64,000 nt of DNA from a plasmid, in NCBI RefSeq assembly GCF_055900595.2, contig NZ_JBVWEU010000002.1; one strand, written 5' to 3'. Every line of letters begins with the position of its first letter. Position 1 is the first letter of the stretch. The notes below the pieces were generated by a model. It had not been told where the DNA came from. It saw only the letters and a list, made by a program, of their open reading frames with translations, and ran no database searches. The position numbers and the translations under genes were made by a program. This document shows, in pieces, positions 7,350 through 41,432 of this stretch.

Positions 7350-7630
7350 GGTAATGACTCCAACTTATTGATAGTGTTTTATGTTCAGATAATGCCCGAT
7401 GACTTTGTCATGCAGCTCCACCGATTTTGAGAACGACAGCGACTTCCGTCCCAGCCGTGCCAGGTGCTGCCTCAGGTTCAGGTTATGCCGCTCAATTCGC
7501 TGCGTATATCGCTTGCTGATTACGTGCAGCTTTCCCTTCAGGCGGGATTCATACAGCGGCCAGCCATCCGTCATCCATATCACCACGTCAAAGGGTGACA
7601 GCAGGCTCATAAGACGCCCCAGCGTCGCCA
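7350..7630 (-). mobile_element. IS1, about 280-bp fragment from the IRR end (inverted orientation)
   Basis: GGTAATGACTCCAACTTATTGATAGTG at 7350; encodes the C-terminal 88 aa of InsB on the minus strand, identical to the copy at 22079-22342; similarity ends at about 7630. Confidence 0.85.
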
Positions 7631-14989: not shown

Positions 14990-16540
14990 ATGAACAGCAT
15001 AAAACTAGAATGGAAACGTGGTGACTGGGCGGCTTACTTTGGACTGATGACCAACAATCTGACTAACCTGCTGACAATGATGGGTCTGCTAATTTTTGTC
15101 GTCGGAATCCCTACTGAAATTGTCTATGGACGCATTGCGCCTGCCTTTGGTCTTGCAGTGCTGGCGGCCAGTGTCTGCTACTCCTGGTTTGGTCTACAGA
15201 TGGTGAAGAAAACCGGTCGTAGCGATGTAACGGCGCTGCCGTCTGGACCGAGCGCACCCTCAATCTTTACCGTGACATTCCTGGTGCTGATGCCGGTTTA
15301 TCAGCAAACCAAAGATGCCAACTTTGCTATTCAGATAGGATTGGTGTGGTGCTTTGTCGAAGCGTTGATCCTGGTCGGTGGCTCCTTCCTGGGTGAGACT
15401 ATCCGCAAGATGATCCCGCGTACAGTGCTGCTTTCTTGTCTGTCCGGACTGGGGTTATTACTGCTGGCAATGAACCCGATGCTGCAAGCGTTCGAAGCGC
15501 CGACAGTTTCTTTCATCGTCCTGTTATTGATCTTCATTAACTGGTTCGGTAAGAAGCCGATTTTTCCCCATATTCCTACCGGTTTGCTGTTGCTGATTGC
15601 TGGTACGTCCCTAGCGTGGATATCCGGTTTACAAAGCCCGGAAGACATTAAAGCGTCGATGTCTTCCTTCGGCTTCAACCCGCCGGAAATTCATGTAAGG
15701 AGCTTCCTGCAAGGTTTGCCGCACGCTCTGCCATATCTGGCTTCTGCAGTTCCTTTGGGCCTGGCTAACTACATTTTTGACCTCGAGAACATTGAAAGTG
15801 CGCACGCGGCTGGTGATGAATACAACACCCGTAAGGTCATGATGGCGAACGGCTTTGCCTCCATGCTCGGTTGCATGCTGGGTAATCCGTTCCCGGTAAC
15901 CGTATATGTTGGGCATGCAGGCTGGAAAGCTATGGGCGCTAGTATCTGCTATACCCTCGCATCAGGCATCACTATGTTCCTGGTGCCATTGTTTGGGTTG
16001 GGCGCGTTTATGCTCGCCATTATTCCCATGACTGCTATAGTGCCAATTCTGGTTTTTATCGGTGTGGTAACCGCCAATCAGGTGGTGCGAGAAACTCCTA
16101 AAGTCGAGGTTCCCGTCATTTTCATCTGTCTGTTCCCATGGGTCGCCAACTGGGCATTGACCATCGTTAACAGCGTGATGGGCGCAGCCGGAACATCCGC
16201 TGAGAAACTTGGTAGCGACCTGTTGCACAGCAAAGGCGTCTATTACGATGGACTGATGCATCTGGGAAGCGGTGCACCGCTGGCCAGCATGCTGTGGGGA
16301 TGCATTGCTATCTTTGCCATTATGAATAAGCCGCTGCGCGGGGCGATAGCTGCATCCTTTGGAGCACTGTTATCGCTGTTTGGCGTGATTCACTCCCCAG
16401 CGGTTGGCTTTGCGGAAGGCAGCTCGATTGTGTTTGTTGTGGCCTACCTGATGATGCTTGCTATGTTTGCCCTCAAGCATGTTATTGATAGCCGTGAAAC
16501 AGTGGCTGCGTCTGAGCAGGAAGAGACTAAAACGACCTGA
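14990..16540 (+). CDS. polytopic membrane permease (possibly NCS2/AzgA-like)
   Basis: 516 aa with many hydrophobic segments; sits between yahG-like and carbamate kinase genes; family assignment tentative. Confidence 0.6.
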   Translation: MNSIKLEWKRGDWAAYFGLMTNNLTNLLTMMGLLIFVVGIPTEIVYGRIAPAFGLAVLAASVCYSWFGLQMVKKTGRSDVTALPSGPSAPSIFTVTFLVLMPVYQQTKDANFAIQIGLVWCFVEALILVGGSFLGETIRKMIPRTVLLSCLSGLGLLLLAMNPMLQAFEAPTVSFIVLLLIFINWFGKKPIFPHIPTGLLLLIAGTSLAWISGLQSPEDIKASMSSFGFNPPEIHVRSFLQGLPHALPYLASAVPLGLANYIFDLENIESAHAAGDEYNTRKVMMANGFASMLGCMLGNPFPVTVYVGHAGWKAMGASICYTLASGITMFLVPLFGLGAFMLAIIPMTAIVPILVFIGVVTANQVVRETPKVEVPVIFICLFPWVANWALTIVNSVMGAAGTSAEKLGSDLLHSKGVYYDGLMHLGSGAPLASMLWGCIAIFAIMNKPLRGAIAASFGALLSLFGVIHSPAVGFAEGSSIVFVVAYLMMLAMFALKHVIDSRETVAASEQEETKTT

Positions 16541-21992: not shown

Positions 21993-22342
21993 CTAAATCG
22001 CGCCAGCGCTGGCTGTTTTACGCGTATGACAGTCTCCGGAAGACGGTTGTTGCGCACGTATTCGGTGAACGCACTATGGCGACGCTGGGGCGTCTTATGA
22101 GCCTGCTGTCACCCTTTGACGTGGTGATATGGATGACGGATGGCTGGCCGCTGTATGAATCCCGCCTGAAGGGAAAGCTGCACGTAATCAGCAAGCGATA
22201 TACGCAGCGAATTGAGCGGCATAACCTGAATCTGAGGCAGCACCTGGCACGGCTGGGACGGAAGTCGCTGTCGTTTTCAAAATCGGTGGAGCTGCATGAC
22301 AAAGTCATCGGGCATTATCTGAACATAAAACACTATCAATAA
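21993..22342 (+). pseudogene. insB: IS1 InsB, C-terminal part (split by IS100)
   Basis: resumes in frame with [15 protein letters not shown]... immediately after the IS100 right end. Confidence 0.85.
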
Positions 22343-22357
22343 GTTGGAGTCATTACC

Positions 22358-25214: not shown

Positions 25215-25312
25215 CTCCCCGCATAGCTGAATTGTTGGCTATGCGGTTTTATGGGGCCCCGGTAATCTTTTCGTACTCGCCAAAGTTGAAGAAGATTATC
25301 GGGGTTTTCGCT
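25215..25312 (+). ncRNA. copA: CopA-like antisense RNA of the repA1 leader
   Basis: two stem-loops on the plus strand (25220-25246 and 25257-25304); second loop contains cgccaaa and is followed by a T-run; boundaries approximate. Confidence 0.45.
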
Positions 25313-25450
25313 TTTCTGGCTCCTGTACATCCACATCAGAACCAGTTCCCTGCCACCTTATGGCGTGGCCAGCCACAAAATTCCTTAAACGATCAGCAAT
25401 CTATCACGCACACCAGAAACAGGCAAGAATGTGATGTCGCTACATTTTAG

Positions 25451-25982: not shown

Positions 25983-26132
25983 TTACTTCCGTGCTTCGTA
26001 GGCCAGAGTTACCTGCACCACTGTATTTCCCCTGTGAATATTCAGCTCACATAACCGTTCTCTGAATATCAGTGAAAAACACAACACCGTGGCGCACACG
26101 GCGAGCAGCCCGATAAGGGCATATTTCGTCAT
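25983..26132 (-). CDS. srnB: Hok/Gef-family toxin (SrnB-like)
   Basis: MTKYALIGLLAVCATVLCFSLIFRERLCELNIHRGNTVVQVTLAYEARK; an overlapping upstream reading frame (MKYLNTTDCSLF...) resembles the mok/srnB' leader. Confidence 0.75.
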   Translation of the reverse strand: MTKYALIGLLAVCATVLCFSLIFRERLCELNIHRGNTVVQVTLAYEARK

Positions 26133-26341
26133 AAACTTTGACCTCTCTGCAAAGAAGAGGCTACAATCAGTAGTGTTAAGGTACTTCATGCAGACCTCAC
26201 GAGTTAATGGATTAACGAGTGGGGTCTTCGCATTTCTGGTACCTGCGTCTTGCCTGAACCAGAAAGGCTCAGACACCCGCCGCGATAATACCACATTCCT
26301 GTCTGGTTACGACGATCTCCATGCCCCCGGTTTTTATTGCA

Positions 26342-26416
26342 GAAACGCCGGGAGCGGGGAAAACTTGCTTTTTCCCGTTTCCGGGGTTGGACAACTGAGC
26401 AACGCGAAGGCGTCAG
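26342..26416. repeat. structured repeat, copy A (hairpin plus conserved 3' tail)
   Basis: gaaacgccgg...hairpin...tttccggggttggacaactgagcaacgcgaaggcgtcag; paired with the copy at 37222-37293. Confidence 0.5.
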
Positions 26417-26915
26417 CTACGATGTTCCGGTGACTGCTGATCAGCCCCTGTTGTATTCAGCCATTCTCCGGTCATCTGCAGCAGTTTTCTGGCATCGTGG
26501 CTTCTGAGCAACGGAATACCAGCCTGCCTCAGAACCTCTTCCAGAAGAATATCCCGGCGTCTGCGTTCCGGTCGTAAATGGCTGGCATCATCCAGCTCTA
26601 CTGCTGCAACAATACTGAACGAACGCCGCTCAACGATAACCACATCAACATGCCACTGAGACACCATCCTGAATAACTGCCACCACTGGCGTGATCGTGG
26701 CCGGATATTCCCGTTCAGCTGGACGATATCCGCGACCCGTACCTGCGGACACAGATACCACCGCTGGACAGTATTCGCTCTGCATCACCGGTCCGTATAC
26801 CTGCCGTATGCAATTGCATCAGCAAAGGAGAATGCTGATTTACACTTCTGAGGATAATCCGGATAAGTAACGCTGCAATAATCAGAACAATGAGAATAAA
26901 AATAATCAACTTCAT
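26413..26915 (-). pseudogene. hypothetical protein, apparently frameshifted (two adjacent ORFs)
   Basis: ORF 26715-26915 (N-terminal hydrophobic segment) and ORF 26413-26667 lie in tandem in different frames. Confidence 0.25.
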
Positions 26916-26953
26916 TATTTATCTGCTCCTGGCAATTAATTATTGCTGAATTA

Positions 26954-27163
26954 TTACCTTACATATTTCCATATCTCTTTTGGTATCCTGTCATATAACT
27001 TTCCGGTGATTAATTCCGCTAACCGGTGGTCTGCTGCTGAATTAAATGACTCACGTTCACTGTTTGATAAACTGTCTCTGTTTTTATGAATAATTTTTTC
27101 CAGCGTATTGACTGATGAACATCGCCGTAACTGATACAGCCATTCCTGTTTTGTTTTTGCCAT
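26954..27163 (-). CDS. hypothetical protein
   Basis: 69-aa ORF in the finO-distal maintenance region. Confidence 0.3.
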   Translation of the reverse strand: MAKTKQEWLYQLRRCSSVNTLEKIIHKNRDSLSNSERESFNSAADHRLAELITGKLYDRIPKEIWKYVR

Positions 27164-27208
27164 TTTTATTCCCGCTGAGAACAGATGAATGATAGGATTG
27201 CCATCGCT

Positions 27209-27670
27209 TTATTTACGGTGCCTCCATATCCAGGGGGGAACCGGATCAGCATCTGACCAGAGCCCACGTTTTTGTTGTCTGGCTTCGTTCTGAAGGACAG
27301 GCAGCACGGGATCTGTGTTGTACTGCTCATATACCCAGGCAGCCCCGGCCCGGACCATAAACTGATTAATATTCATTCCGTCTGGTGCATAAACCTGCCC
27401 GAGAATACGACCATAACGATCTCGCTGAAAATATGTGACGGTAACCGTTTTTCCTGCGACCAGTGATTTCATCATGTCTGTTGACCACCGGCCATAATCC
27501 TGTTTCTTTTCCGGTGCATCAATATTTACCAGCCTGATCCGCACCGCCTTCCGTGAGTCCATGACCTCGATGGTATCACCGTCCAGTACACGAACAACCC
27601 GTCCATGAATATCTGCAGACAATACCGGCCATGAAAAGATAAATAATACCAGTGGAATATATTTCATCAT
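27209..27670 (-). CDS. nuc: secreted thermonuclease (staphylococcal-nuclease-like)
   Basis: signal peptide MMKYIPLVLFIFSWPVLSA; SNase motifs DGDT, NIDAPE, DRYGR. Confidence 0.8.
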   Translation of the reverse strand: MMKYIPLVLFIFSWPVLSADIHGRVVRVLDGDTIEVMDSRKAVRIRLVNIDAPEKKQDYGRWSTDMMKSLVAGKTVTVTYFQRDRYGRILGQVYAPDGMNINQFMVRAGAAWVYEQYNTDPVLPVLQNEARQQKRGLWSDADPVPPWIWRHRK

Positions 27671-27915
27671 GTTATTCTCCATATCAGATAAATGGCACCT
27701 GTATTTCAGGCATCCTGAACATTGCAGCACACAATGAATAACACCTTATTTTGTGAAATAAATCACAAAATATAAAATCACGACTTAATACGGAAAAAAC
27801 TCTGTGCTACTCAGAACTGTCCGGTCATACTGCCCGACCGGATATTAAAAAAAGCAAATCTCATAAACTCCTTTCAGCCTTCTGACTTCTGGTGTAATGA
27901 AGGCTGCTTTTTTCA

Positions 27916-28128
27916 TTACACCCTTCCCCGGCAGCGCCGGTGGCAGTGTTCAGCCTTTTTCCGGGCAAACTGCTGCCAGTCTGTCCGGGGAGCTATGCAG
28001 GCAGCCCGTCGCCATGCTTCTGCCGCTTCCATCCAGCGTCCACTGACCTCCAGAATAACGGCCCGCCCGCCGGCACGCTGGTAACGCCAGACCTGACCGT
28101 TCCGTGAACTGTTTCTGAATCCATTCAT
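27916..28128 (-). CDS. hypothetical protein
   Basis: 70-aa ORF downstream of finO. Confidence 0.3.
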   Translation of the reverse strand: MNGFRNSSRNGQVWRYQRAGGRAVILEVSGRWMEAAEAWRRAACIAPRTDWQQFARKKAEHCHRRCRGRV

Positions 28129-28263
28129 TTTTCTGCTCCTCCCTTTTAGTCGTCAGTATTATTGTGGTAAATAATTCAGTGGACTGGCTTCCTTTCGGGT
28201 ACGGAAGTTATTTCCTTTTAAGCCTTATTGTTTCAGCCTCCTCACTCTTTCGGGGAGGCCTTT

Positions 28264-28824
28264 TTATTTCTCATCAAGCACGGCCTGAAGTTCTGCCTTT
28301 ATCCGGTTCTGGCGGCGGATTTTATCCAGACGCGCTGCCGCATACGCTTCCTCCTCCTGAGAAATATGCTCCGTCACATACCCTTCCGTGTCATACCGGC
28401 AGGCACCGGCTTTCATGGCACACAGATAGCTTTCTGAACGGGTGATGGCCTTCAGCGCCCTGCGCAGTTTTTTATGCGAGAGCGGGATATTCCGCTGCGC
28501 CACGTCTTCCAGTAACACGTCCCGGATACCGCAGGCCAGAAGCCGGGGCGTGTCACCGTCAAATAATCCCGGCCACCAGGGCTTCAGGGTATTCACGGCC
28601 TCATCCAGTGAGGGCAGGTTCAGATAAATGGACAGCGCCTGTCTAGCCTGCGCTTTTTTTGCCGCCAGCTCTGCTTCCCGGGCCGCTTTCTCGGCCAGTT
28701 TCTGCTTTTTCACCTTCCATTTTGGTGGCGTGGTGACATTGATGATGGTTTTCCGGCTGCGGACAGGCGTCTCTCCTTCTGTTTTCCGCTTCAGTGTCAG
28801 TACCGGTCGTTTCTGCTCTGTCAT
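28264..28824 (-). CDS. finO: fertility inhibition protein FinO
   Basis: [25 protein letters not shown]... matches FinO; gene uninterrupted. Confidence 0.85.
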
Positions 28825-28877
28825 GCTGTGTTCTGCCTCTGACGAATCATCCTTTACGGTCAAAGATACCACACCCT

Positions 28878-29624
28878 TTACAGTGCCAGAACGCCCAGCA
28901 CAGCCAGATGGCAGGCGTAGAAAGTCGGGAAAAAATCCCCGGGCCAGAAACGGGGTAATGATTTCCCTGCACAGGACACCAGGCCAACGGTCAGCACCGT
29001 CATCACAAGGCCGGCCACCGCCGCTGTATCACTGGTGGCAAGGTTAAGCGCAGGAATCACAGTCAGCAGGCATGCAACCAGCACCAGACGTTCCGTTCTG
29101 TCTTCCGCCCGGTACAGCCGGTGACTGACTGCCAGCATCAGCAGCCCGGCAATACCGTAACTGGTGCCGGACAAAGGCCCCCACAGTGCCATCAGGAGAA
29201 TGGCCGCTGCAGTACGCCACAGACTGCGCGTTTCACACCACGTCAGCACCTGTGCCGCAACTGCAAAGGCAAACAGGATATTCCCCTCATACCAGGGAAA
29301 GCCGGCCAGATAATACGCGAACTGGGCAATCACACCCCATCCCCACAGCCGGTTAATGGCCGACTGCCGGATATGCGCATGGCGGGACAGATTCAGCCCC
29401 CACACCAGGGCAAAAAGCGGAAAGGCTCCACGCCCGGCCAGAAACATCCACGTCTGGTCCAGATGCAGAATGCGGTTTGCATGGTCCAGTACCATCAGCA
29501 CCAGTGCCACCGTTTTGATGATATCCCGCTGTCCGGGGGACCAGACCAGCAATGACTGCAACCAGGTATCGGTCCGGGCAGCCAGTGAATCGTTACGTGT
29601 CGTGTTCGTGTTATCCGTTGTCAT
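28878..29624 (-). CDS. traX: pilin acetylase TraX
   Basis: 248-aa polytopic membrane protein directly downstream of traI. Confidence 0.85.
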
Positions 29625-29643
29625 CAGCGTTTATCTTCCTGTA

Positions 29644-32600
29644 TCAGTCTCCGCCCAGGGTTTTCTCTTTCTGCAGGTCACGAACCATATCCCGCTCCAT
29701 CTGCTGCAGACGCTCCTGCAGCAGGTTTTCCCGGGCAACCTCGCGGACCGCTTCCCGTTCCCGTTGTGGTTCACGCAGTACACTCTCCGGCAGCGCGGCT
29801 TCCCGTTCAGTTATGGCAGCCCGGTCACGCTCCTGCCCGGCAATTTCCCTGACAGCCAGCTCTGTTTTGCCATCCGGCAGGTCAGGTTTGTTCTCTGCCA
29901 TTTTACGGACAATTTCATCTGCGCGGCGTTCCGTTTCACGGCGGATAGCCTCTTCAGCCTGCCGCTGTGCCAGTACCTCTGCCGTGACCGGTTCGCCATT
30001 TCCGGCACCCGGCTGGACGCTGTTGTCCGGGATATCCCCCCACACGCGGCCACCGGTGATGGCACCGGGATTCCACGGACGGCCTTCACCGGCGATTCTT
30101 ACCACCACACCACTGTCAGGATTATCACGGGCAATCCGGACGCCATCCTGCATATTATCAGCCAGCAGGCTCTCTCCGTTACGGCTGCCCTGCAGGGCCA
30201 CGAACTGCGCATCCCCGCTGCCTTTCACACGGCCTTCACCACTGAATCCCCGCAGCCCGTTTCCGTCATCCGTGGTCAGTGGGTTCAGCCAGATACCTGC
30301 TGACTTGCCGTTACGGTCAAACGCCGGCAGTGCCACATACGGCTGCGGATATTTGCGCCCCGGTGCAATAAACCGTGCAGGACTGTCTCCCCCGGCCAGC
30401 CCCGCCTGACGAAGAACGGCACGGCCTGCCGCCACGTCCCGCAGCTCCCGCGCCGTACTGAACAGCCGCTCTGCATTCATGACCTCCCGGTCCGGTTTCG
30501 GCTCAAACACATCGTGGGCCGTACCTTTCTGTACGGCATTGTTGATGGCATCCGTCCAGCCCTGACGGTTATCGGTGTACACCTGCACATGCTGCTTCAT
30601 ACGCGACAGGGCCACGTAGGCTGACTCAAAGCCGGCCATCAGTTTCCGGTTACCTTCCGTGCCTTCAAGCGCGATGGCAAAGGTTTCACTTGCCCCCTGC
30701 GCACCGTGGGCGGTGATGGCATAAGCCAGGTCAATATGTTGCTCTGCCCGCTCCTGACCGGGGCGAATCACCCGGGTCTGCTGTCCGTCCGACAGCGTGA
30801 CACTGTCACCGGAAACCGCTGTCACCGTCCAGACGCTGTTGGCCACATAGCCGCGCTCCCGATCACTCTTCGTGAAGCGCATCCGGTCACCGGTTCCCAC
30901 CCGGATGGTGTCCGGGGTGTACAGTGTGACGCCTTCAGCCACCGCCTCCCGGGGCGAAATCAGCCGCGTGTTACCTTCCGCATCCTGCAGGGTTATCAGC
31001 CCGTCATCCTTACTGATACCGGCAATCCGGTGATACGCATTATCCACCAGGACAAGTGCGTCCCGATGTGTCTCCCAGGTGGAGAGACGACGCAGTTCTC
31101 CGTCACGTATATTCGCTGTGTTCAGGACAGGCACCATGACCTGCTCTTTGCCCAGCTCACCGGCCTTTTCCCGTGCATCATGAATCATGCTGTTCAGTAC
31201 GCGCCGGTCCTCATTCAGGTGTGTGACAATCAGCGTCTGCTCCCGTGCTTCCGGTGTCCTGCCGGTATAGTCGCGGACAATGGCTTCATACAGTGTCATG
31301 GGGATATCCGGGAAAGCCTCGCCTTTCAGCATCGCCTTCTGCTGCGCTTCTGCCAGTTTCGCTTCCTGGCTGTGACTGAACTCCGTCACGGAGTGCTCCG
31401 GTGCCCATGCGCCCTCCAGACGTGGCACCTGAGACGGTTTCACGCTCTCAAGCCCGGACAGTGCCCTTTCCACATCCCGGTTAATCAGGCTGTATACCGC
31501 CTCCCGCAGTTCCGGCGTCTGACGCACAATCTCCTTCATGATGACCACATCGGCAGCACTGCGCGTCTGCTGGAGACGGAAAGGCTGACCGGGCGCGATG
31601 GCCTGCAGCTGGTCCGTGTCACCGCTGGCCACAGCCCGACCGCCACCGGCCGCAATCAGGGCGTATGCCCGTGCCATGTCGGTATTGCCCACCATTGAGC
31701 TCTCATCGAGCAGGAACAGCGTGTTGCTGAAATCCGGCGTTTCTCCGCTGCGCTGCTGCATCTGCGTGTCATGCAGAAAGGACGCCAGTGTCTGTGCATC
31801 CACGCCGGCGCTGCGCATCTCCCCGACCGCACGGTGCGTGGGGCCCAGCCCAACGACACGGGGACGCTCACTCTCCGGCAGCATGTTCACGGCTGACATC
31901 ACCGCCCGGAACTGTGTGGTCTTACCCACGCCGGCATAGCCCTGCACCACCGTGAAACGGTCGGACGTTTCCAGTATCATGCGGGTGGCGGCACGCTGTC
32001 CTGATGTCAGTTTCTCCATGAGTTCGCCAGGTACTCTCTCCATCAGCGGCGTGACCGCCTCCTTACCTTCGAGAATATGGCGAAGAATGCTCTTTTCTGC
32101 CTCATACGACGCACGGGAAACCAGCAGGCCTGTGCCATAGCCTTTTGCCACATCCACATACAGTAAATCACCGCGTTTTATCTGCGCATTGATTTCCCCT
32201 CCCAGGTCGATAAAACTGGTTCCTTCTGCAGCAAACGACTTCGCCTCTGTCAGCAGGTCCACCATGCTGAAGGCCAGGTTTTTACTTTCCAGCACAGGAA
32301 GGGCCAGATGAATAGCCTGCTGTGCCGGCGTGTGAAGCCCGGCTTTCTGCAGACTGATAGCGGTTTCCAGCAATGTCTCACCGGCACGCGCCTTTATCTG
32401 CTCAGAAACCACCGTAAAGGAGGGATGACGGGCAAGTTTTTCCGCAGTACGGGTTTCATCCAGTGAAGAATACAGCCGGACATCACGACCGCTGCGGGCC
32501 AGACCGTTCAGGGTGGCGTTGTCCATTGCCATCTGTGTGACGGAGGCAAAAACCTTCGCACTGTCGCTGACGGAATGCCCGGGCGTTTCCACCCAGCCGT

Positions 32601-34914
32601 TCTCCAGCTTCAGTGCCGTGAACGGTGAATCAGCCACAGGCAGGGTGGCCGGTTCAGCCCGCCCCGGCACAACAACCGTCATCGCATCTTCACTGACGGA
32701 TGCCACCTGCAGGCGGTCACCGCCGGAGACGCGGAGTCCGGGAATTTTCCCTGTCACCCTCAGACGCTCGCCGTCTGCCACCGGCATTTTTTCCGGCCGG
32801 AACAGCGACCAGCTGCTGTCCAGAGAAGAAATACGCACCACCTGCGTTTCACCCTGCGCATCCCGCAGGGTCAGGCTGTGACTCTGCGCCGTCACCCGGT
32901 CTATCACATAGCGGTCATGACTGCGTGTCTCCGGGTTCCACTGCTCCATCACCATTCCCGGGCGGTACATATCCCGCAGATAACGGCTCCGGCTGTCCAG
33001 CCAGACCGGTGACAGTGCCGTCATGGTCACCTCCTGATGTCCGAGCACGCCCTGTGTTTTCAGCTCACTGCGAATGGCCTGTGTCAGTATGGCCTGTTCC
33101 CGTACCCCGCTGACCTGTGCCACGCTCTCTTCTCCGGCTTTCACGCTGGCCGCAAAATCTCCTGCCAGCCGGGCATAGCGGACATTACGGTCCGGTTCAC
33201 TGATGATGGTGGCCGGTCGCTGTTCTCCCCCCTGCCAGCGATATGTGTTCACCCCGGCATCCTTCATGGCCATCAGCGCACTGCCTGTACCGGTTCGCTG
33301 CCCGCTGTCGGTTATCAGGACCTGTACGTTATGACGTGCGGCACCGTCCAGCAGGGTTAACGTCTCTTTCAGGGAGAGTTTTTCGCCCTGGTCAACGATA
33401 ACAGTACTGCCCGGCGTGAAGGCCATGCCTTCCAGCAACTGACGACGTCCGGTTATCAGCTCACCGGACAGCCGTTCATCCTGCTTCAGGTTCATCTGCG
33501 AGCGACGGTCAGCAGCGATAATCTGCACTTCCCGCCCCTGCTCCCGGGCCATCATGACCAGTTCAGCCACCCGCTCACGCTGCCCGGCTGCACCGCCCTG
33601 CCCGGACACAATGGCCAGCGACGGACGGTCCTGTGCCAGAACACTGACCGCATCGCTGTAACCAGCCGTCCGGGGGACACTTTTCTCCGGATGTACGGTC
33701 ACCCGGTTCTGTTTCATGATGTCACGACTGAGTGCCCGGACGGACAGCTCATCGAGCACATGAATTCCTGATGCGAACAGCCCCTTCTCACGGTCGAGGG
33801 GGATAAGCTGCTCACGACTGATGGTCTCATCGATACCGGCGCGTGCCCGTTCAATCACACCATTTTCCGGCGGCAGTATACCGACCGTTCTGGCCAGCAC
33901 GTCCGTGTACGTAAACTGCACTTTTCGTTCACTTAATCCGGCAATCGCCTGTGTCACCGCCTGCTGCACATCCGGCCCCTCCTGTGAAACAGCCCCGGGC
34001 GCCTGCGTGCGGGTCTCCGCACGCTGATCCGCCGCGTCACGATATGCCCGGATGTCGAACCCGGTTTCCTTCAGCGTCTGCATCCATTCAGCCATTCTGA
34101 CTTCAGGATCGACGTGCTGTTTGGATTTTCGCGTATCCAGTGCCGCCACATCCCGGGATTTCAGCGAGGCATCTTCCCCGACGGCCTCCCGGATTGCCTG
34201 TGAGCGTCCGGAAAAGGCCTCCACCGGTACGCCCGGCATCTCCCACATACCGTGCTTACCCACCACTTCGGTTTCATAGCCCAGCGCCTCAACCTGCTCT
34301 TTCAGTTTTTCCCGGTAGAGCCTGCCAAAGGCAATCTGATTAGCGTACACATTCTCAATGAACCCCGTTTTCCCCACTTTGTCACTGCTCAGTGTCTTCC
34401 ATTCGCCGTTATGCTGCGTGACATTAGCCACCACCGCATGCGTGTGTAACTGTGGTTCCTGATCGCGACTGGTGTCGTGGTTAAACAGTGCCATCACCAG
34501 ATTACCGGTCAGCACCGTTTCTGACTGTCCGTCCGTCATCACCCGTGTGGAGGCCAGCGCCTCCACCTGACGAACAGCAAAGTCCACGGCCTGGTTATGT
34601 GCATCAATCAGGCGCTTATCGCCACCTAACATGGCCATCATGGAGACACTTTTGGGGGCGGAGAAGGTCAGGTCGTAGCCGGGACGATGCCTGTTACTGC
34701 CATCCTGCATGCGGCTTAGATCCGCTCCGTCCGGCAGCCTTCCCTCCAGAAGACGGGTAAAAACATCCTTATCGACACTGCCCTGCAGTCCCAGCTGTTC
34801 AGCCCCCCTGCCGGCCCAGCGTTCTCCCATGCTGCCCAGCACATAGTAATTATCCTTGTCGGTATAATAGTTACCGGCACTTCCGGCCGATCTGACCTGC
34901 GCGATACTCATCAT
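29644..34914 (-). CDS. traI: relaxase/helicase TraI
   Basis: 1756 aa; N-terminal relaxase ([24 protein letters not shown]) and helicase domains. Confidence 0.95.
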   Translation of the reverse strand: MMSIAQVRSAGSAGNYYTDKDNYYVLGSMGERWAGRGAEQLGLQGSVDKDVFTRLLEGRLPDGADLSRMQDGSNRHRPGYDLTFSAPKSVSMMAMLGGDKRLIDAHNQAVDFAVRQVEALASTRVMTDGQSETVLTGNLVMALFNHDTSRDQEPQLHTHAVVANVTQHNGEWKTLSSDKVGKTGFIENVYANQIAFGRLYREKLKEQVEALGYETEVVGKHGMWEMPGVPVEAFSGRSQAIREAVGEDASLKSRDVAALDTRKSKQHVDPEVRMAEWMQTLKETGFDIRAYRDAADQRAETRTQAPGAVSQEGPDVQQAVTQAIAGLSERKVQFTYTDVLARTVGILPPENGVIERARAGIDETISREQLIPLDREKGLFASGIHVLDELSVRALSRDIMKQNRVTVHPEKSVPRTAGYSDAVSVLAQDRPSLAIVSGQGGAAGQRERVAELVMMAREQGREVQIIAADRRSQMNLKQDERLSGELITGRRQLLEGMAFTPGSTVIVDQGEKLSLKETLTLLDGAARHNVQVLITDSGQRTGTGSALMAMKDAGVNTYRWQGGEQRPATIISEPDRNVRYARLAGDFAASVKAGEESVAQVSGVREQAILTQAIRSELKTQGVLGHQEVTMTALSPVWLDSRSRYLRDMYRPGMVMEQWNPETRSHDRYVIDRVTAQSHSLTLRDAQGETQVVRISSLDSSWSLFRPEKMPVADGERLRVTGKIPGLRVSGGDRLQVASVSEDAMTVVVPGRAEPATLPVADSPFTALKLENGWVETPGHSVSDSAKVFASVTQMAMDNATLNGLARSGRDVRLYSSLDETRTAEKLARHPSFTVVSEQIKARAGETLLETAISLQKAGLHTPAQQAIHLALPVLESKNLAFSMVDLLTEAKSFAAEGTSFIDLGGEINAQIKRGDLLYVDVAKGYGTGLLVSRASYEAEKSILRHILEGKEAVTPLMERVPGELMEKLTSGQRAATRMILETSDRFTVVQGYAGVGKTTQFRAVMSAVNMLPESERPRVVGLGPTHRAVGEMRSAGVDAQTLASFLHDTQMQQRSGETPDFSNTLFLLDESSMVGNTDMARAYALIAAGGGRAVASGDTDQLQAIAPGQPFRLQQTRSAADVVIMKEIVRQTPELREAVYSLINRDVERALSGLESVKPSQVPRLEGAWAPEHSVTEFSHSQEAKLAEAQQKAMLKGEAFPDIPMTLYEAIVRDYTGRTPEAREQTLIVTHLNEDRRVLNSMIHDAREKAGELGKEQVMVPVLNTANIRDGELRRLSTWETHRDALVLVDNAYHRIAGISKDDGLITLQDAEGNTRLISPREAVAEGVTLYTPDTIRVGTGDRMRFTKSDRERGYVANSVWTVTAVSGDSVTLSDGQQTRVIRPGQERAEQHIDLAYAITAHGAQGASETFAIALEGTEGNRKLMAGFESAYVALSRMKQHVQVYTDNRQGWTDAINNAVQKGTAHDVFEPKPDREVMNAERLFSTARELRDVAAGRAVLRQAGLAGGDSPARFIAPGRKYPQPYVALPAFDRNGKSAGIWLNPLTTDDGNGLRGFSGEGRVKGSGDAQFVALQGSRNGESLLADNMQDGVRIARDNPDSGVVVRIAGEGRPWNPGAITGGRVWGDIPDNSVQPGAGNGEPVTAEVLAQRQAEEAIRRETERRADEIVRKMAENKPDLPDGKTELAVREIAGQERDRAAITEREAALPESVLREPQREREAVREVARENLLQERLQQMERDMVRDLQKEKTLGGD

Positions 34915-37076
34915 CAGAAATCATCTCCCGGCTCAACATCCTCCCCGCGCTCCCGGTGCACATTAATGTTCACCTCTTCACGACGCTGCATCTGCTGCTG
35001 GATGTCCGGATGATTTTCCTGTTGCCATGCCTCATAAGCGGCCATATCCACCACTTCACCGGATTCACTGATCCCGGGTGGCAGTTGCTGTTCCATCTCT
35101 TCTTCCGGTTTCATTTTCAGCTCCTGCTCGATCCCCCCTGCCGGAACATTCACACCTGAATCTGACTTCTTATCGTTGATGGCAGGAGACACCGGCTGTT
35201 GCGGCTGTTGCGGCTGTTCAGCCTGAGTCACGTCTTCTCCGGAAACAACTTCCGGCACATCCGGTTCGAAGAGGCTGGCCATCTGACGACCTTCTGCTTC
35301 CCTTGCGGCAAGTACGGCACTCAGACGGTTCTCCATTTCCGGGTTGATGTCACGCGGAATAAACTCCGGAGCGACCTTCGGACGTGCCTGATATTTCAGT
35401 GAGAGTTTTACTGCCGGATACGGTCCGGGCAGGGTGACATAACAGGTCAAATCCGGCAGAGACTGAATGTCAGAATAACTGACCAGCGTCTGGCGCTCCA
35501 TATCCTTACCGGTCGATACCCCGTCACGTACCGGATCAGCACCGTAGGAGTACTGCTCGCTGGCTTTCAGGTGCTCTTTCTCACCAATCTCACCGGCAGC
35601 GAACTCTGCAATCTTATGGCTGGGAGAACGGAAAAAGGCACGGGTGTTCATGACGTCAAACAGCGTGGCAGCCGCTTTCTCACCGTAGATATCTTCCAGC
35701 TGGGCATAGGACTGGATACCAAACACATAACAGCCACCGAACTTACGGGCTTCCGGCAGGATCTCCACCAGGTCCGGCAGTTTGTGTAACGTGGGTAGCT
35801 CATCACAGAAAAACCACACACGACGGTTACGGTTTTCTCCCATTGCCAGCAGACCACGAATGGCAATGGACAGCCACATGGAGATCACCGGCTTCAGGGA
35901 GGCATGGGTGTCGGCATTCGACGAGATAAACAGCCAGCCGTTTTTCTGATCTTCCCGGACACCCCGCATCCAGTCACGGATGGTAAAAGACTCACCGTTA
36001 TGCTCAATCCCCTGCAGGTAACGGATGGCTTTCACGTAGTTGGTCAGCACAGCACGGATGGAAATCGCCGTTTTCTCAATTTTCTCTTCCACCAGGTTGG
36101 CCGCCGGTGAATTACGCAGGAAGGTACGCAGTTTTTCGATTTTGATGGAAAGCAGTGTGTCCACCAGTTTGCTGTAGCTGCGGTTGGGGTCATTACGCAT
36201 CAGGTACGCCGCTTCCGCAAAAATGGTACGTCCTGAACCCTGCCAGAACGGGTCCTCTTTTGTGCCCATCGGGATCAGGGTATTTGCCGTATTATCAAAA
36301 TCCGGCTGTGTCAGACACTCCTTCCATAAATCCCAGGCGGCACAGCGGGCATCCAGCGGATTCAGGATCTTATCGATGGAGGGATCATAGTAACTTTTAA
36401 CAAATTCCCCTGAACGGTCATAAATCACCACCATATCACCGCGCTGACGGGCGTAGTTGGCCAGACGACGGATAACTTCCGACTTACCGGCCCCGACCGT
36501 GCCGTGCAGACAGAAGTTCTGGATTTCAGAATCCCGGATAATCGGCAGGTCGCCAATCCGGATATCGGAGTCCTTGCCGTCTTTTTTCAGCATCCGGGCA
36601 ACGTCTTTCGGATTGTCTGTCAGCTGACGACCACCTGTGACTTCATTTTCGCTCTGTTGTTTACCCTGACGCCCCAGAATCCAGGAGACAACAAAGAAGG
36701 TAATCAGGCAAATAACCAGTGCCACAACTGTGGCCAGAACGAATGCGGACCATAGCTGCTCTCCGCACCAGATCATATATTTATCATGCAGTACCTGAGC
36801 AGCATTCATCCGGAAGGTTTTGCCGTAATACTGGATCTCATAGACCGGCTGGGACTTGATTAAATCCCGCATGCCTTCCAGCGTGGTACACCACCAGTAA
36901 ATACAGCCGTTCACAAACGTCTGCCAGCTTATTTTTACCCATAAAACCAGACCAACGAGTATCCAGAAAAAAATAAACAGGCAGTAAAGCATGATATTGG
37001 CGATCTGGCTGAACATGCGGATACGCATGGACGCAATCTGACCGCCCTGGGTCATATCCTTTGCGTTAAAACTCAT
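34914..37076 (-). CDS. traD: type IV coupling protein TraD
   Basis: 720 aa with Walker A and C-terminal QQP repeats. Confidence 0.95.
35194..35219. repeat. 9-bp tandem repeat ggctgttgc (about 2.8 copies) encoding the TraD QQP repeat
   Basis: read directly in sequence; translates on the minus strand to QPQQPQQP. Confidence 0.8.
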
Positions 37077-37221
37077 GATGATATTCCGAAGAAAAAAAGT
37101 TAGTCGGACTGATTATTAATGATGAAAAGATTAATAACCGTTAAATTCCGGCTTCGCCGGCAACACTTCACGGTCGCACAAAGAATTTGCACAACCGCTC
37201 AGTGTTTTCATATTTATTTCG

Positions 37222-37293
37222 GAAACGCCGGGGAGAAATAAAATTTATTTTATTTCTTTCCGGGGTTGGACAACGAGCAAAGCGAGGCGTCAG
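37222..37293. repeat. structured repeat, copy B (hairpin plus conserved 3' tail)
   Basis: gaaacgccgg...hairpin...tttccggggttggacaacgagcaaagcgaggcgtcag in the traT-traD intergenic region. Confidence 0.5.
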
Positions 37294-37328
37294 TCAGGAG
37301 GCCGGTCAGACCAGCCTCCGGAAGATAA

Positions 37329-38060
37329 TCAGAGAATATTTGCGATTGATTTGGCCAGCTGGTCTTCGAGAACAGGCTTCGCCTCTTCAAATTTCAGGTT
37401 AACCTTGTTCGCATTTGAGACCACACGGGTCTGGTATTTATGCTGGTTACCTGTTTCAGTACTGGTCTGAATTTTCGCACCTGATGTGCCCTGACGCAGG
37501 GCGGCTACATTGTCCGTTGTCACCGTTGCCTTAGTACGCTCTGCAATCTGCACATCCGTGATCATGGTATAGTTCACATCTTCCACCATCGCATCTGCAG
37601 CCATACCCACCAGACCGGCAGCAAGGCCCACACCGAGTGTGGCACCGGCAGAACTGGAATTATATCCGGTGATACCGGCACCTAACGCTGCACCAACTGC
37701 TGCGCCTTCATAACCACGGTTCAGCCATCCCTGAGACTCCCGCAGATCCATCTTATCGGCCTTCAGCACATTCGCCTGAATCCAGTAGTAGGCTTTATCC
37801 GGAGAAGTCACCACCTGATACCCTTTTGCTTTCACAGCATCAGCAATTTTGCCCTGCAGCCCACTCATGTCTTTATCAGACGTGTTTTTGATCTGCAGAA
37901 ATACCGTGCGTTCGCTGGCGGGTTCAAGCCAGATGGTCTCACTCATCTGAGTCTTCACCTCAAGGTTACGCTTCTTGATTGCTGTGCTCATCGCACCACA
38001 CCCTGAAACGGCCAGAGTGGAACTGACCAGTGCAACCATCATCAATTTTTTTGTTTTCAT
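37329..38060 (-). CDS. traT: surface exclusion lipoprotein TraT
   Basis: [21 protein letters not shown] lipoprotein signal; start set at the internal ATG of the longer ORF. Confidence 0.9.
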
Positions 38061-38609: not shown

Positions 38610-41432
38610 TTATTGCTTGTGCTTATCCTGATACTCCTTTGCTCTTTTCATCAGTTCCTGTGGACTGTCAGCCCCGGGCATTCTTTCCTGACCCGATTTT
38701 TCTTCATTATATTTATTATTCTGAGATAATGCCTCTGTTTTATGGTGATTTTGTAGTTCAGAATACTGTCTTCCTACAATATTTTCTTCGCCACGTATGC
38801 TGCTCTGAGTATCTCCGATATTGCCTCTGTATTCTGTGACCATATTATCAACCTGATGTTTTACATCATTACGGATATTACTGTCCTGCGTTCTTTGCTC
38901 AATAATGGCCTGATGCCCCTGATGATCAGCAATAATATCCTGGCTGCCACCCCCCGAAGGTACGCTCTCCATTCCTTTACCGATGTCCCCACGGGATTCA
39001 CGCCAGGCATTATCAACACCAGGCTGCACCTGTTCCTGAACAAAAGACCACGCCATAGCCCGACGGCGTTCTGCAATCTCCGGGGAACTGGTGTTTGTCA
39101 GAATAGCTTCGGCATCCTGCGGCGCGTGTTTCATCACATACTGTGCAAACTGTTGCGACAGGTCTTCACTCATCTGCCCACTCATGCTTTCAGTACGGGA
39201 TGCCATTTCAGCATATTCATGGCTGCGGGTCATATTCGTCGTGTACTGGTCGTAACTCTGTTTTGCTGAGTTCAGGGCTGCAGACAGCTGGTCCACACGG
39301 GAATCGGCATTATTGTCCGTATGGCTGCCGGATTCACTGACCTTGCGACTGGTAAAGTAATCGCTGGCCTCTTTAAAGTCTTGTGTAGCCCTGGCATCGA
39401 TATCATGGCGAGCATCATGGCTGGCCCGTGAACCACTGCTGGCCTGATGCGCATCCTCATCACTCCAGTCAATACTTGCCCGACCACCACCTCTAACACC
39501 TACGCCACCACCAACACCAAGAATTTTAGGTTTAACCCCCCATTCAGCATGAGCATCGCCATACATCCCCGCAGAACCTCTCGTACTTCTTGATGCCAGT
39601 TCTCTTGTCGCCTGCTCATTACTGATATTATGCGCCTTCGCATAGCTTTCCACTGCGCTGCGCATACGGCTGGCCATCATGGAGTCCTGTGCACTCATCG
39701 TGCTGTCAGCACCACCGGTGACAGAATCACTGCTCCCCCGGTTAGAACCAAACTGACTGAGCGAGTTCCAGGCACTGGCAATACTGCTGCTGAACCCATG
39801 CAGGGCGCTTTCTGCTCTGTTCGACGCCTCCCGGGCCATTTCCTGTTGTGCCGCCGCAATCTGACGCGTTGCATTGATACCGACCGGTAAACGGGACATC
39901 GCCCCGCTCGCATCCATCACCATATTACCGTCACGGGTCTGTGTGGCGGTTGCGCCACTGCCGGTCTGGTACATCATCTGACCAAACGACGTGGTGCTGT
40001 TGGTGCTCCAGCTGAATCCGTTCACGTTTTCCGTCTGCATGTTGCCGTAGGAGTAATTACCGTCAACCACACTACCTGCCGCACTGGCAGTCGGGCTGAT
40101 AGCAGAGGAAGCGAAATGGCTGTACACACTGGAAAATCCGGCCCCGAGTCCCCTGACCATCATCCAGGATAATGGCGGGATCATCATGGAAAGATACCCG
40201 GCAGTGGAAGCCAGATCGGAGTATTTCAGCTGTATCTGTGAAATTTCCGAGAGCACCACCGGTGCACCATTCTGCTTCGCATAAAATGTCATGGCGCTGT
40301 TCAGAATGGCGTACAACATTGGCCATGACTGCAACCACATCAGGGCAAACACATAGCCTTTCAGGACGGACAGCGTCAGTTTGTTGAAGACAGCCGCCAG
40401 TACCAGAAGCGGGAAAATACCGATGGCGATCCCCGTCAGGATGGTCTGCGTCATGGGCAGTGTCCGCATCGCCACATGACCGATGGAGACATGTGCCAGA
40501 CGTTGCTTCTCCATCGATGACGTGGTGGCCAGATTCACCAGGCTGGCTGAATCACCATTACGCGCGGCATAACTGGTGATCCCCTCCTTCAGCGCATTGA
40601 TGGTGACATTCTGGCGGATGATCTGGCTGGCTGATTTACTTGAGCCATAGAAGTAACTGTAACTGTCGCCAATCAGCGTACTGAACAACAGGTTCGGATC
40701 AGGGCGTCCACCAAATAGCTGCTGGGCATAATAATGCCAGGTTTTTCCGCCACTCTGTGTATCCAGATTCAGCTTGTCTTTCAGCGAAACCGACGCGTCC
40801 TTACAGGTCACGAAATTATTATTGCTGTCATAAACGCCCCGTAGCGGACTGGGGCGGGAAAAAATCAGCGTGTAGGGATCAGCGGAGGCCATCAGCTCCT
40901 CCAGCGTGTATTTGTGGTTCAGGTAAATATCCCCCATCACGCAGTTCTGCACATAATCCTGGAAAAGATTGGCGATTTCCGGATTGCGGGACAAAAAGTC
41001 GGTGCTTTTTGATACCAGTTCTGCGCCAAACAGCATCCCCGTTTTGCTGTAGGTGACACTGTCCGGTTGCGTGAAGATCATCTCGTAACTGGCCACCATT
41101 GCATGCCCGATACGGGTCGTCAGTGAAAGTGGCATCGCCAGTCCGACCGGCACATTATCCACCCGGTGAACTTTGACCAGGTCACTGTTATCAATAATCT
41201 GCACCGATGTGCGGACATTAACCAGCAGGCTGATAAGCACAAACACGGCCACCCAGCCCAGCAAATCCATCACGTTGTGCCGCTGTACCCACATTACGGC
41301 CACCGCGAGAACAGACAATGTGAGCGCAATTTTTTCAATGGAATCCCACGTCCGGGTCCCCATAAAGGCGGCAATGGCATTCAGGTTATTCCGCAACCAC
41401 TCACCACCGGCAATCACATAAACTTCATTCAC
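38610..41432 (-). CDS. traG: mating-pair stabilisation protein TraG
   Basis: 940 aa; position and size. Confidence 0.9.
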   Translation of the reverse strand: MNEVYVIAGGEWLRNNLNAIAAFMGTRTWDSIEKIALTLSVLAVAVMWVQRHNVMDLLGWVAVFVLISLLVNVRTSVQIIDNSDLVKVHRVDNVPVGLAMPLSLTTRIGHAMVASYEMIFTQPDSVTYSKTGMLFGAELVSKSTDFLSRNPEIANLFQDYVQNCVMGDIYLNHKYTLEELMASADPYTLIFSRPSPLRGVYDSNNNFVTCKDASVSLKDKLNLDTQSGGKTWHYYAQQLFGGRPDPNLLFSTLIGDSYSYFYGSSKSASQIIRQNVTINALKEGITSYAARNGDSASLVNLATTSSMEKQRLAHVSIGHVAMRTLPMTQTILTGIAIGIFPLLVLAAVFNKLTLSVLKGYVFALMWLQSWPMLYAILNSAMTFYAKQNGAPVVLSEISQIQLKYSDLASTAGYLSMMIPPLSWMMVRGLGAGFSSVYSHFASSAISPTASAAGSVVDGNYSYGNMQTENVNGFSWSTNSTTSFGQMMYQTGSGATATQTRDGNMVMDASGAMSRLPVGINATRQIAAAQQEMAREASNRAESALHGFSSSIASAWNSLSQFGSNRGSSDSVTGGADSTMSAQDSMMASRMRSAVESYAKAHNISNEQATRELASRSTRGSAGMYGDAHAEWGVKPKILGVGGGVGVRGGGRASIDWSDEDAHQASSGSRASHDARHDIDARATQDFKEASDYFTSRKVSESGSHTDNNADSRVDQLSAALNSAKQSYDQYTTNMTRSHEYAEMASRTESMSGQMSEDLSQQFAQYVMKHAPQDAEAILTNTSSPEIAERRRAMAWSFVQEQVQPGVDNAWRESRGDIGKGMESVPSGGGSQDIIADHQGHQAIIEQRTQDSNIRNDVKHQVDNMVTEYRGNIGDTQSSIRGEENIVGRQYSELQNHHKTEALSQNNKYNEEKSGQERMPGADSPQELMKRAKEYQDKHKQ

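Follow-up and report, generated by a model that had tools for sequence, protein, structure and literature searches.

The 64-kb stretch analysed here (the window) is a segment of an IncF (F-like) plasmid with its tra operon on the − strand (NCBI RefSeq assembly GCF_055900595.2, contig NZ_JBVWEU010000002.1), and it carries two copies of a structured module, copy A at 26342–26416 and copy B at 37222–37293. We found that both copies belong to a widespread backbone element of about 75 nt in the F-like (MOBF/MPF-F) plasmids of Enterobacterales, the conserved hairpin of which folds better from one strand than from the other in every variant folded. This strand selectivity of the conserved fold is the main new result. 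The module works most like a strand-specific hairpin signal in single-stranded DNA (ssDNA) and sits like a terminator. Four readings are weighed below, namely a signal on the strand transferred during conjugation (T-strand), a terminator, an antisense RNA module and a recombination site, and they are not mutually exclusive.

Both copies lie on the + strand, according to direct reading and to a search of the whole window with a covariance model run without filters; apart from a reverse-strand echo of both hairpins, this search found no third copy in the window better than E 0.1. The initial annotation had placed one copy between a hok-like gene and a frameshifted open reading frame (ORF) and the other in the traT–traD spacer, and our map, taken from the annotation of E. 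coli plasmids with stretches 100% identical by megablast (including p135-3 and p1517k), agrees on positions and contexts alike. The outer and tail sequences described as shared were also recovered: the copies align over about 75 nt and have GAAACGCCGG, CCGGGGTTGGACAAC and AGGCGTCAG in common, and the 18-mer TTTCCGGGGTTGGACAAC occurs twice in the window, where 0.05 occurrences are expected by chance. As had been noticed, the inner stems differ in sequence (GAGCGGGGAAAA/TTTTTCCCGTTT versus GGAGAAATAAAA/TTTTATTTCTTT) and both form hairpins, each with a continuous 16-pair helix, an AAC/GTT closure and one G·G mismatch. The two copies have fold z-scores of −4.0 and −4.3, and none of 200 shuffled sequences folded equally well. 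Because similarity between the copies stops sharply at both ends, they do not lie within a larger duplication, which disposes of the concern that a single duplicated segment might account for both.

For comparison, we collected plasmid and metagenome stretches, labelled L plus a number. Scanning metagenomes with the pattern GAAACGCCGG-N20–45-CCGGGGTTGGACAAC yielded 120 loci, and these together with the plasmid loci comprise 28 distinct cores and 66 core-plus-flank combinations. A scan of genome contigs with the 15-mer CCGGGGTTGGACAAC alone also yielded 120 loci, nearly all of them chance matches; the real ones are L017, L023, L060, L070 and L071. Plasmids and metagenomes gave 34 distinct variants in total, each consisting of a 19-pair hairpin, the conserved and unpaired linker GGTTGGAYAAC and the conserved end AGGCGTCAG, which is invariant in all 34. 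In most of the sample, the two anchor strings are invariant because the pattern required them; the conservation of AGGCGTCAG, and that of GTTGGAYAAC in two divergent copies, was not imposed in this way. The covariance model found copies outside the scan pattern at L204 7726–7804, with the perfect outer stem CCGGCGTT, and at L141 11056–11131, beginning AAAACGCTGG; the linker and end are kept even in these, the most divergent of all. Among the other variants, R100-like plasmids (L006) have a third version of the inner stem, GGTGACAAAAT/ATTTTGTTACA, L003 and L007 have C-C in place of the T-T of the copy B hairpin, which makes it a perfect palindrome, and in Klebsiella-type copies the module end forms a second hairpin, GACGCC-N7-GGCGTC.

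When the 34 distinct sequences were aligned to the model, 97.5% of stem cells paired, compared with 87.5% in shuffled alignments and 45–75% when the partners were slid. Both sides had changed in 9 of the 19 pairs (68 cells), and the covariation score was 0.382 versus 0.181 in shuffles, a value that 0 of 500 shuffles reached. This alignment was fitted to the model and hence favours structure; alignment-free folding gave the same helix in every variant, and in the 16 ungapped A-type sequences 97.7% of cells paired, as against 43–73% with the partners slid. Such family-wide pairing and covariation mark the hairpin, on comparative grounds, as a selected structure, in line with the initial annotation, which had preferred a selected RNA or DNA structure to a chance repeat. 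That suggestion had been made to depend on conservation of the hairpin in homologous plasmids, and the hairpin is present in thousands of them. Three features described below were not part of the initial annotation, namely selection on a single strand, the antisense and transferred nature of that strand, and the adjoining stop codons.

The predicted fold of the module depends on the strand from which it is read. With RNA parameters, copy A reaches −38.4 kcal/mol on the + strand and −26.9 kcal/mol on the − strand, and copy B −28.7 and −19.3 kcal/mol, respectively. In all 32 variants the more stable fold is that of the + strand, both with RNA parameters (means of −35.5 versus −26.8 kcal/mol) and with DNA parameters (−20.7 versus −15.5 kcal/mol). 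The non-canonical pairs differ as well, given here as raw counts over variants that do not model phylogeny. Minimum-free-energy stems on the + strand contain 537 Watson–Crick pairs, 52 G·U pairs and no A·C mismatch; those on the − strand contain the same 537 pairs, no G·U pair and at least 24 A·C mismatches. Read on the + strand, the model alignment has 57 G·T versus 2 A·C, and at several stem positions G-C, G·T and A-T are all seen and A·C never. Since both routes from G-C to A-T take the same two mutations, the lack of the A·C intermediate is better explained by selected pairing on the + strand than by mutation bias alone. In a sliding fold of the whole window, copy A had the largest + preference of any strongly folding segment (−14.1 kcal/mol), a scan that is mostly uninformative as choosing the better strand itself creates asymmetry. 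Taken as a set, the variants show a hairpin that appears to be kept paired by selection on the + strand only.

The + strand is antisense to every flanking gene, and it is also the T-strand, which is nicked at the origin of transfer (oriT) and transferred 5′ to 3′ to the recipient. The window ends at traA, at about 63.0 kb, and oriT therefore lies outside it. In the near-identical plasmid NZ_MW800638.1, which has the same orientation, the + strand carries GCAAAAACTTGTTTTTGCGTGGGGTGT↓GGTGCTTTT (arrow, nick), that is, the F-type inverted repeat and nick site, and tra shares its orientation with psiB and ssb, which are genes of the leading region. During F transfer the 5′ end is at the nick and the leading region enters first; the assignment of the + strand as the T-strand follows from this polarity and the nick site. 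Wherever copies A and B occur in one locus, they are in direct orientation.

Two links between the module and oriT itself were tried and rejected. As a nick site for TraI (GTGGGGTGT↓GGTGC beside an inverted repeat), only AAAACTTG(C)TTTT aligns, with a score of 21, which is below the top-scoring windows. A likeness to the oriT inverted repeat and nick (AAAACTTGTTTTT ... GGGGTGTGG) covers 12 of 13 apex bases only, and oriT is ignored by the covariance model, so we attribute it to chance. Elsewhere on the transferred strand, the 13-mer GGTGTGGTGCTTT at 15341–15353 (+), inside the coding sequence (CDS) of a hypothetical protein, exactly matches the F oriT nick core GTGGGGTGT↓GGTGCTTT in its 3′ half; about 0.002 matches of this kind are expected by chance.

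The module is widespread. Using BLAST with segments of 86–91 nt, we matched more than 5,000 plasmid records from Escherichia, Klebsiella, Salmonella, Shigella, Citrobacter, Enterobacter and Serratia, and the same BLAST search gave no match in phages. Of 5,426 complete E. coli genomes, 3,406 (~63%) contain the module, with a median of 2 per genome; 6,229 of the 6,284 places are on plasmids and 55 on chromosomes. In PLSDB, the module occupies more than 8,000 places. A plasmid has one to three copies, always at the same two backbone positions, and the copy B of the F plasmid (NC_002483.1) is 100% identical to that in the window. Rfam 15 has no family over either copy, at the gathering score or at E ≤ 10, and the module is described as a family nowhere in Rfam or in the literature that could be searched for traT–traD terminators, single-strand initiation (ssi) sites and the sequence itself. 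A weak match to the model (13 bits, E 0.05) was seen at L253 22816–22883, in the traX–traI gap of a pKpQIL-like Klebsiella plasmid, where a hairpin is followed by GACAA and then by GCGCGTCAG, the TCA of which is the traI stop codon; this is possibly a distant relative of the module.

The borders of the module are sharp, with unrelated sequence directly before GAAACG and directly after GGCGTCAG in at least 8 left and at least 12 right flank contexts. The module begins 0–50 nt past the stop codon of the upstream gene in at least 12 gene contexts, with one case of 123 nt. The TGA in GGCGTCAG is itself the stop codon of at least five unrelated families, always as xxC-TGA, namely DUF2726, the FinO of L209, a 102-aa family, a 337-aa protein and a 188-aa protein; from its ORF coordinates and a hand translation, the 72-aa gene of L178 appears to stop on the same TGA. 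At the A position, the module is the last element before the replicon side (hok/sok, a PLD-family nuclease or copB–repA), and the gene upstream varies between finO, DUF2726, the 102-aa family, proteins of 337, 188, 72 and 110 aa and a DsbC/G-like protein. In L209, the simplest plasmid, finO, with which the tra region ends, is immediately followed by the module. L141 and L204 contain gene-module-gene-module arrays. Module variants track the upstream gene, and left flanks are shuffled.

Much of this arrangement is what would be expected of a leaky intrinsic terminator, or a 3′ stabilising hairpin, of − strand mRNAs, a reading that we consider possible but doubtful. Copy B, after traT, would then limit read-through into traD and traI, and copy A would end tra-distal transcripts and shield hok and copB–repA from read-through. 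The closeness of the stop codons, the arrays and the placement directly after finO in L209 all fit, as do a GC-rich stem base (CCCCGG/CCGGCG) and the conserved CGUUUC that follows it on the − strand. The strand data do not: A·C stands in the − strand stem exactly where the + strand has G·U, and the − strand fold is the weaker of the two in each of the 32 variants, by about 9 kcal/mol on average, the opposite of selection on an mRNA fold. Transcription-linked deamination of the non-template strand would likewise produce the opposite wobble bias. Moreover, the U-tract is weak, as the − strand tail CGUUUC(C/U) has 3–5 U where a terminator would need about 5 or more in 8, a terminator scan calls neither copy on either strand, and a plain terminator has no need of the conserved linker and end. 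The module is probably not just an ordinary transcription terminator; if it is one, it would be an unusual and testable case in which the fold of the opposite strand is the conserved one.

Selection on the + strand fold would also suit a structured 3′ module of + strand antisense RNAs, which we think unlikely. Transcripts of this kind would start in the 5′ region of the next gene, in the manner of Sok or FinP and opposite hok, copB, nuc or traD, and would end at, or gain stability from, the hairpin, spacer and second hairpin. In its favour, FinP and RepX have a similar build, with two hairpins and a spacer within some 75 nt; the window contains antisense RNAs already known from this backbone (AS-traI, AS-traG, AS-pc02 and CopA); and on the + strand, copy A is preceded by the Sok promoter at a distance of about 200 nt. 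However, the many unrelated left flanks have no + strand promoter in common, a promoter scan called nothing at either copy, and Rfam gave no family even at E ≤ 10. Nor does a U-tail follow either hairpin in the commonest contexts; on inspection by eye, the listed flanks show a slight trend to U-richness past the second + strand hairpin, which is non-independent and not convincing. In RNA immunoprecipitation sequencing (RIP-seq) of pSLT, traT stood at about 8–16 transcripts per million in controls, 14–23 in the FinO pull-down and 25–36 in the ProQ pull-down, compared with a 130–250-fold enrichment for FinP and RepX. Given no marked traT enrichment in these tables, the module was rejected as a FinO or ProQ ligand; the IesR-1 antisense RNA of pSLT was also rejected, being at a different locus. 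No trans-pairing partner for the linker or end was found within the window.

Separately, Rfam matches to antisense RNAs of pHK01 lie on the + strand of the window at 27834–28019 (AS-pc02), 31989–32065 (AS-traI) and 40628–40713 (AS-traG), and antisense tra transcription may occur here too.

The sharp ends raise the idea of a recombination or cassette-junction site at which gene-plus-module units are swapped, much as attC sites folded from ssDNA are in conjugation; we rate this as very unlikely. A specific form of it, in which an attC-like ssDNA site marks gene-plus-module cassettes in the variable finO-to-replicon region and is folded on the T-strand in conjugation and cut or joined by some enzyme, seems if anything more improbable still, even though it would explain borders that are sharp to the nucleotide and at least five unrelated genes that end on the module TGA in one frame. 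The flanks that begin at the same nucleotide (at least 12 unrelated on the right and at least 8 on the left), the association of module variants with the upstream gene while the left flanks are shuffled, the arrays of gene-module units and the strand-specific folding all accord with such a site, and GTTGGAC matches the attC core GTTRRRY. Yet no RYYYAAC core is present that would pair with GTTGGAC (the 5′ end of the module is GAAACGCC), no integrase or other recombinase was seen beside the arrays or in the flanks, there are no target-site duplications, and the copies number one to three per plasmid at the same two positions throughout. The common reading frame, for its part, is explicable by selection against read-through into the hairpin. 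Apart from a 5-bp ACGCC/GGCGT match, the module is without terminal inverted repeats. Mobile repeats, namely repetitive extragenic palindromic (REP) sequences, miniature inverted-repeat transposable elements (MITEs) and palindrome-associated transposable elements (PATEs), were also tried, as the two hairpins have the base RACGCC/GGSGTY in common, but the plasmid-only distribution rules them out, as it does palindromic elements derived from IS200/IS605.

We tentatively favour a T-strand structure because the strand data fit in every context, and suggest that the module may be an ssDNA signal on that strand. It would then act as folded ssDNA on the incoming T-strand, which single-strand-binding protein (SSB) would be unable to melt and which a host or plasmid protein would recognise. 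Our best guess for its role is single-strand initiation, that is, priming, or a similar processing signal. Synthesis primed at copy A would run back over hok–copB–repA–oriR, and synthesis primed at copy B over traD–traI–traX–finO. On the gene strand, the module may have an attenuating effect on transcription as well. In the leading region of NZ_MW800638.1, an Frpo-like hairpin of about 330 nt (L252 3781–4150) folds to −101 kcal/mol on the + strand and −92 kcal/mol on the − strand with DNA parameters; this known type of T-strand signal has the same sign of strand preference, though modestly.

Several observations weigh against a T-strand signal. The T-strand is often single-stranded, and a strand-biased C→T change on it could inflate the G·T count. 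Backbone genes are near-uniform in orientation, so that being on the T-strand and being antisense to genes are inseparable by orientation. We found no −35/−10 boxes like those of Frpo in the 20-nt arms of the module; among the motifs of G4-type and PriA-type ssi sites, the CTG of DnaG primase is not conserved across variants and is absent from copy B, and the PriA-type AAGCGG occurs in one variant only (u5). The module is also outside the leading region, in the tra region and beside the replicon, and its place just past the stop codons of − strand genes is the one expected of a terminator. A 1987 paper by Jalajakumari et al. (J Mol Biol 198:1), cited by PMC9849209 as its reference 69, reportedly, going by its title, describes terminator activities around traS and traT of F.

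Plasmids that lack a copy count against it as well. The F plasmid has copy B only. Klebsiella IncFIIK plasmids have the A-position copy only, and their traT–traD spacer contains an unrelated hairpin. In CP057201.1 (L008 1360–1600), which is still typed as conjugative, a clean deletion between TTTATTTC direct repeats has removed the hairpin of copy B, and Salmonella pHL21A (L010 1340–1650) has only the tail of copy B, plus an extra 160-aa ORF between traT and traD; the copy B tail is retained in both of these hairpin-less variants. Because F is without copy A, and CP057201.1 and pHL21A are without the copy B hairpin, the module is dispensable, not essential.

If the module is a T-strand ssDNA signal, it would be the first conserved one outside the leading region. 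To our knowledge, it is not settled how most of an IncF plasmid becomes double-stranded in the recipient, and IncF has no primase; a T-strand signal would provide a handle on this step. In E. coli, Klebsiella, Salmonella and Shigella, resistance and virulence genes are carried mainly by F-like plasmids, which gives weight to a module found in about 63% of complete E. coli genomes. Whether the T-strand or the gene strand is the one that matters, the G·T/A·C asymmetry offers ready-made separation-of-function mutations.

The two copies and their surroundings are listed below.

Features of the window around copies A and B (HP1, the main hairpin of each copy; G·T pairs as read on the + strand)
Feature	Position	Strand	Evidence
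copA	25223–25313	+	Rfam CopA
hok CDS, hok/sok module of srnB type	25983–26132	−	
sok	26120–26278	−	Rfam family match
Copy A, whole module, 75 nt	26342–26416	+	Covariance model, 103 bits, E 1e-29, model positions 1–75
Copy A make-up: GAAACG, then hairpin, then GGTTGGACAAC, then TGAGCAACGCGAAGGCGTCAG	26342–26416	+	
Copy A hairpin HP1: 19 pairs, loop CTTGC (26364–26368), one G·G mismatch, three G·T pairs	26344–26388	+	
Copy A linker and tail, GGACAAC...AGGCGTCAG, including a small ACGC/GCGT hairpin	26389–26416	+	Folds
TGA stop of the frameshifted DUF2726 gene, within the module-terminal GGCGTCAG	26413–26415	−	ORF 26413–26667
DUF2726 gene, frameshifted	about 26413–26915	−	
hha	26954–27163	−	
Thermonuclease gene, finO, traX, traI	between hha and traD		
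traD start	37076	−	
Copy B, whole module, 72 nt, traT–traD spacer	37222–37293	+	Covariance model, 64 bits, E 2e-17
Copy B hairpin HP1: 19 pairs, loop TTTA (37244–37247), two G·T pairs on + (AA/CC internal loop on −)	37224–37267	+	
Copy B linker and tail, GGACAACGAGCAAAGCGAGGCGTCAG	37268–37293	+	
traT	37329–38060	−	

The frameshift splits the DUF2726 gene beside copy A into two ORFs, 26413–26667 and 26715–26915 (−); in many related plasmids the gene is intact and encodes 189–196 aa. The traT–traD spacer that holds copy B is 252 bp long and contains further features. A separate hairpin, GGAGGC-N11-GCCTCC at 37297–37319, lies about 10 nt past the traT stop codon, ahead of copy B. R100-like plasmids retain it with a single change in the loop, and its variant in L247 has an A·C on the + strand, that is, a G·U on the mRNA strand, so that this hairpin is possibly the one that folds in the mRNA sense. 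Between copy B and traD, a 26-codon ORF (MKTLSGCANSLCDREVLPAKPEFNGY, 37131–37211, −) is kept in Salmonella pHL21A, where CACTTCACGG/CCGTGAAGTG, overlapping the ORF, form a perfect 10-bp inverted repeat. Farther away, two 281-nt inverted repeats that are 99% complementary (7350–7630 and 22077–22357) surround 14.4 kb and are probably the ends of an insertion sequence or transposon flanking cargo.

Among known systems, the nearest to the reading that we favour are the Frpo and ssi signals of the F leading region, ssDNA promoters and priming signals with which the names of Masai and Arai are reportedly linked. They too are located on the T-strand and fold better from it. They differ in size, make-up and place: the hairpin of Frpo spans about 330 nt, rebuilds −35/−10 boxes and belongs to the leading region, whereas that of the module spans 45 nt, has no promoter boxes and is found in the tra region and beside the replicon. 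Frpo is active only when folded from one strand (PMC9849209, Couturier et al. 2023).

The terminator region reported distal to traT of F coincides in position with copy B, and both are stem-loops between traT and traD; with the title as the only source, the hairpin assayed may be any of three in the traT–traD spacer. A terminator would not account for the asymmetry between the strands, for a second copy, for conservation of the linker and end, or for covariation across the family. FinP and RepX share with the module a length of about 75 nt, two stem-loops with a short spacer and the antisense strand; unlike them, it has no detected promoter or 3′ U-tail, nor does it match Rfam or figure among the FinO ligands that have been reported for pSLT. 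Integron attC sites likewise keep structure while sequence varies, stand at the 3′ end of a gene, often with its stop codon, fold from one strand of ssDNA and occur in arrays, whereas the module lacks paired R″/R′ core sites and an integrase and is present in one to three copies at fixed backbone positions. REP sequences and bacterial interspersed mosaic elements (BIMEs) are also short, repeated, GC-rich hairpins right after stop codons; the module differs from them in that only 55 of its 6,284 places are chromosomal and in having no target-site duplications and no link to a gene for a REP-associated tyrosine transposase (RAYT) or TnpA.

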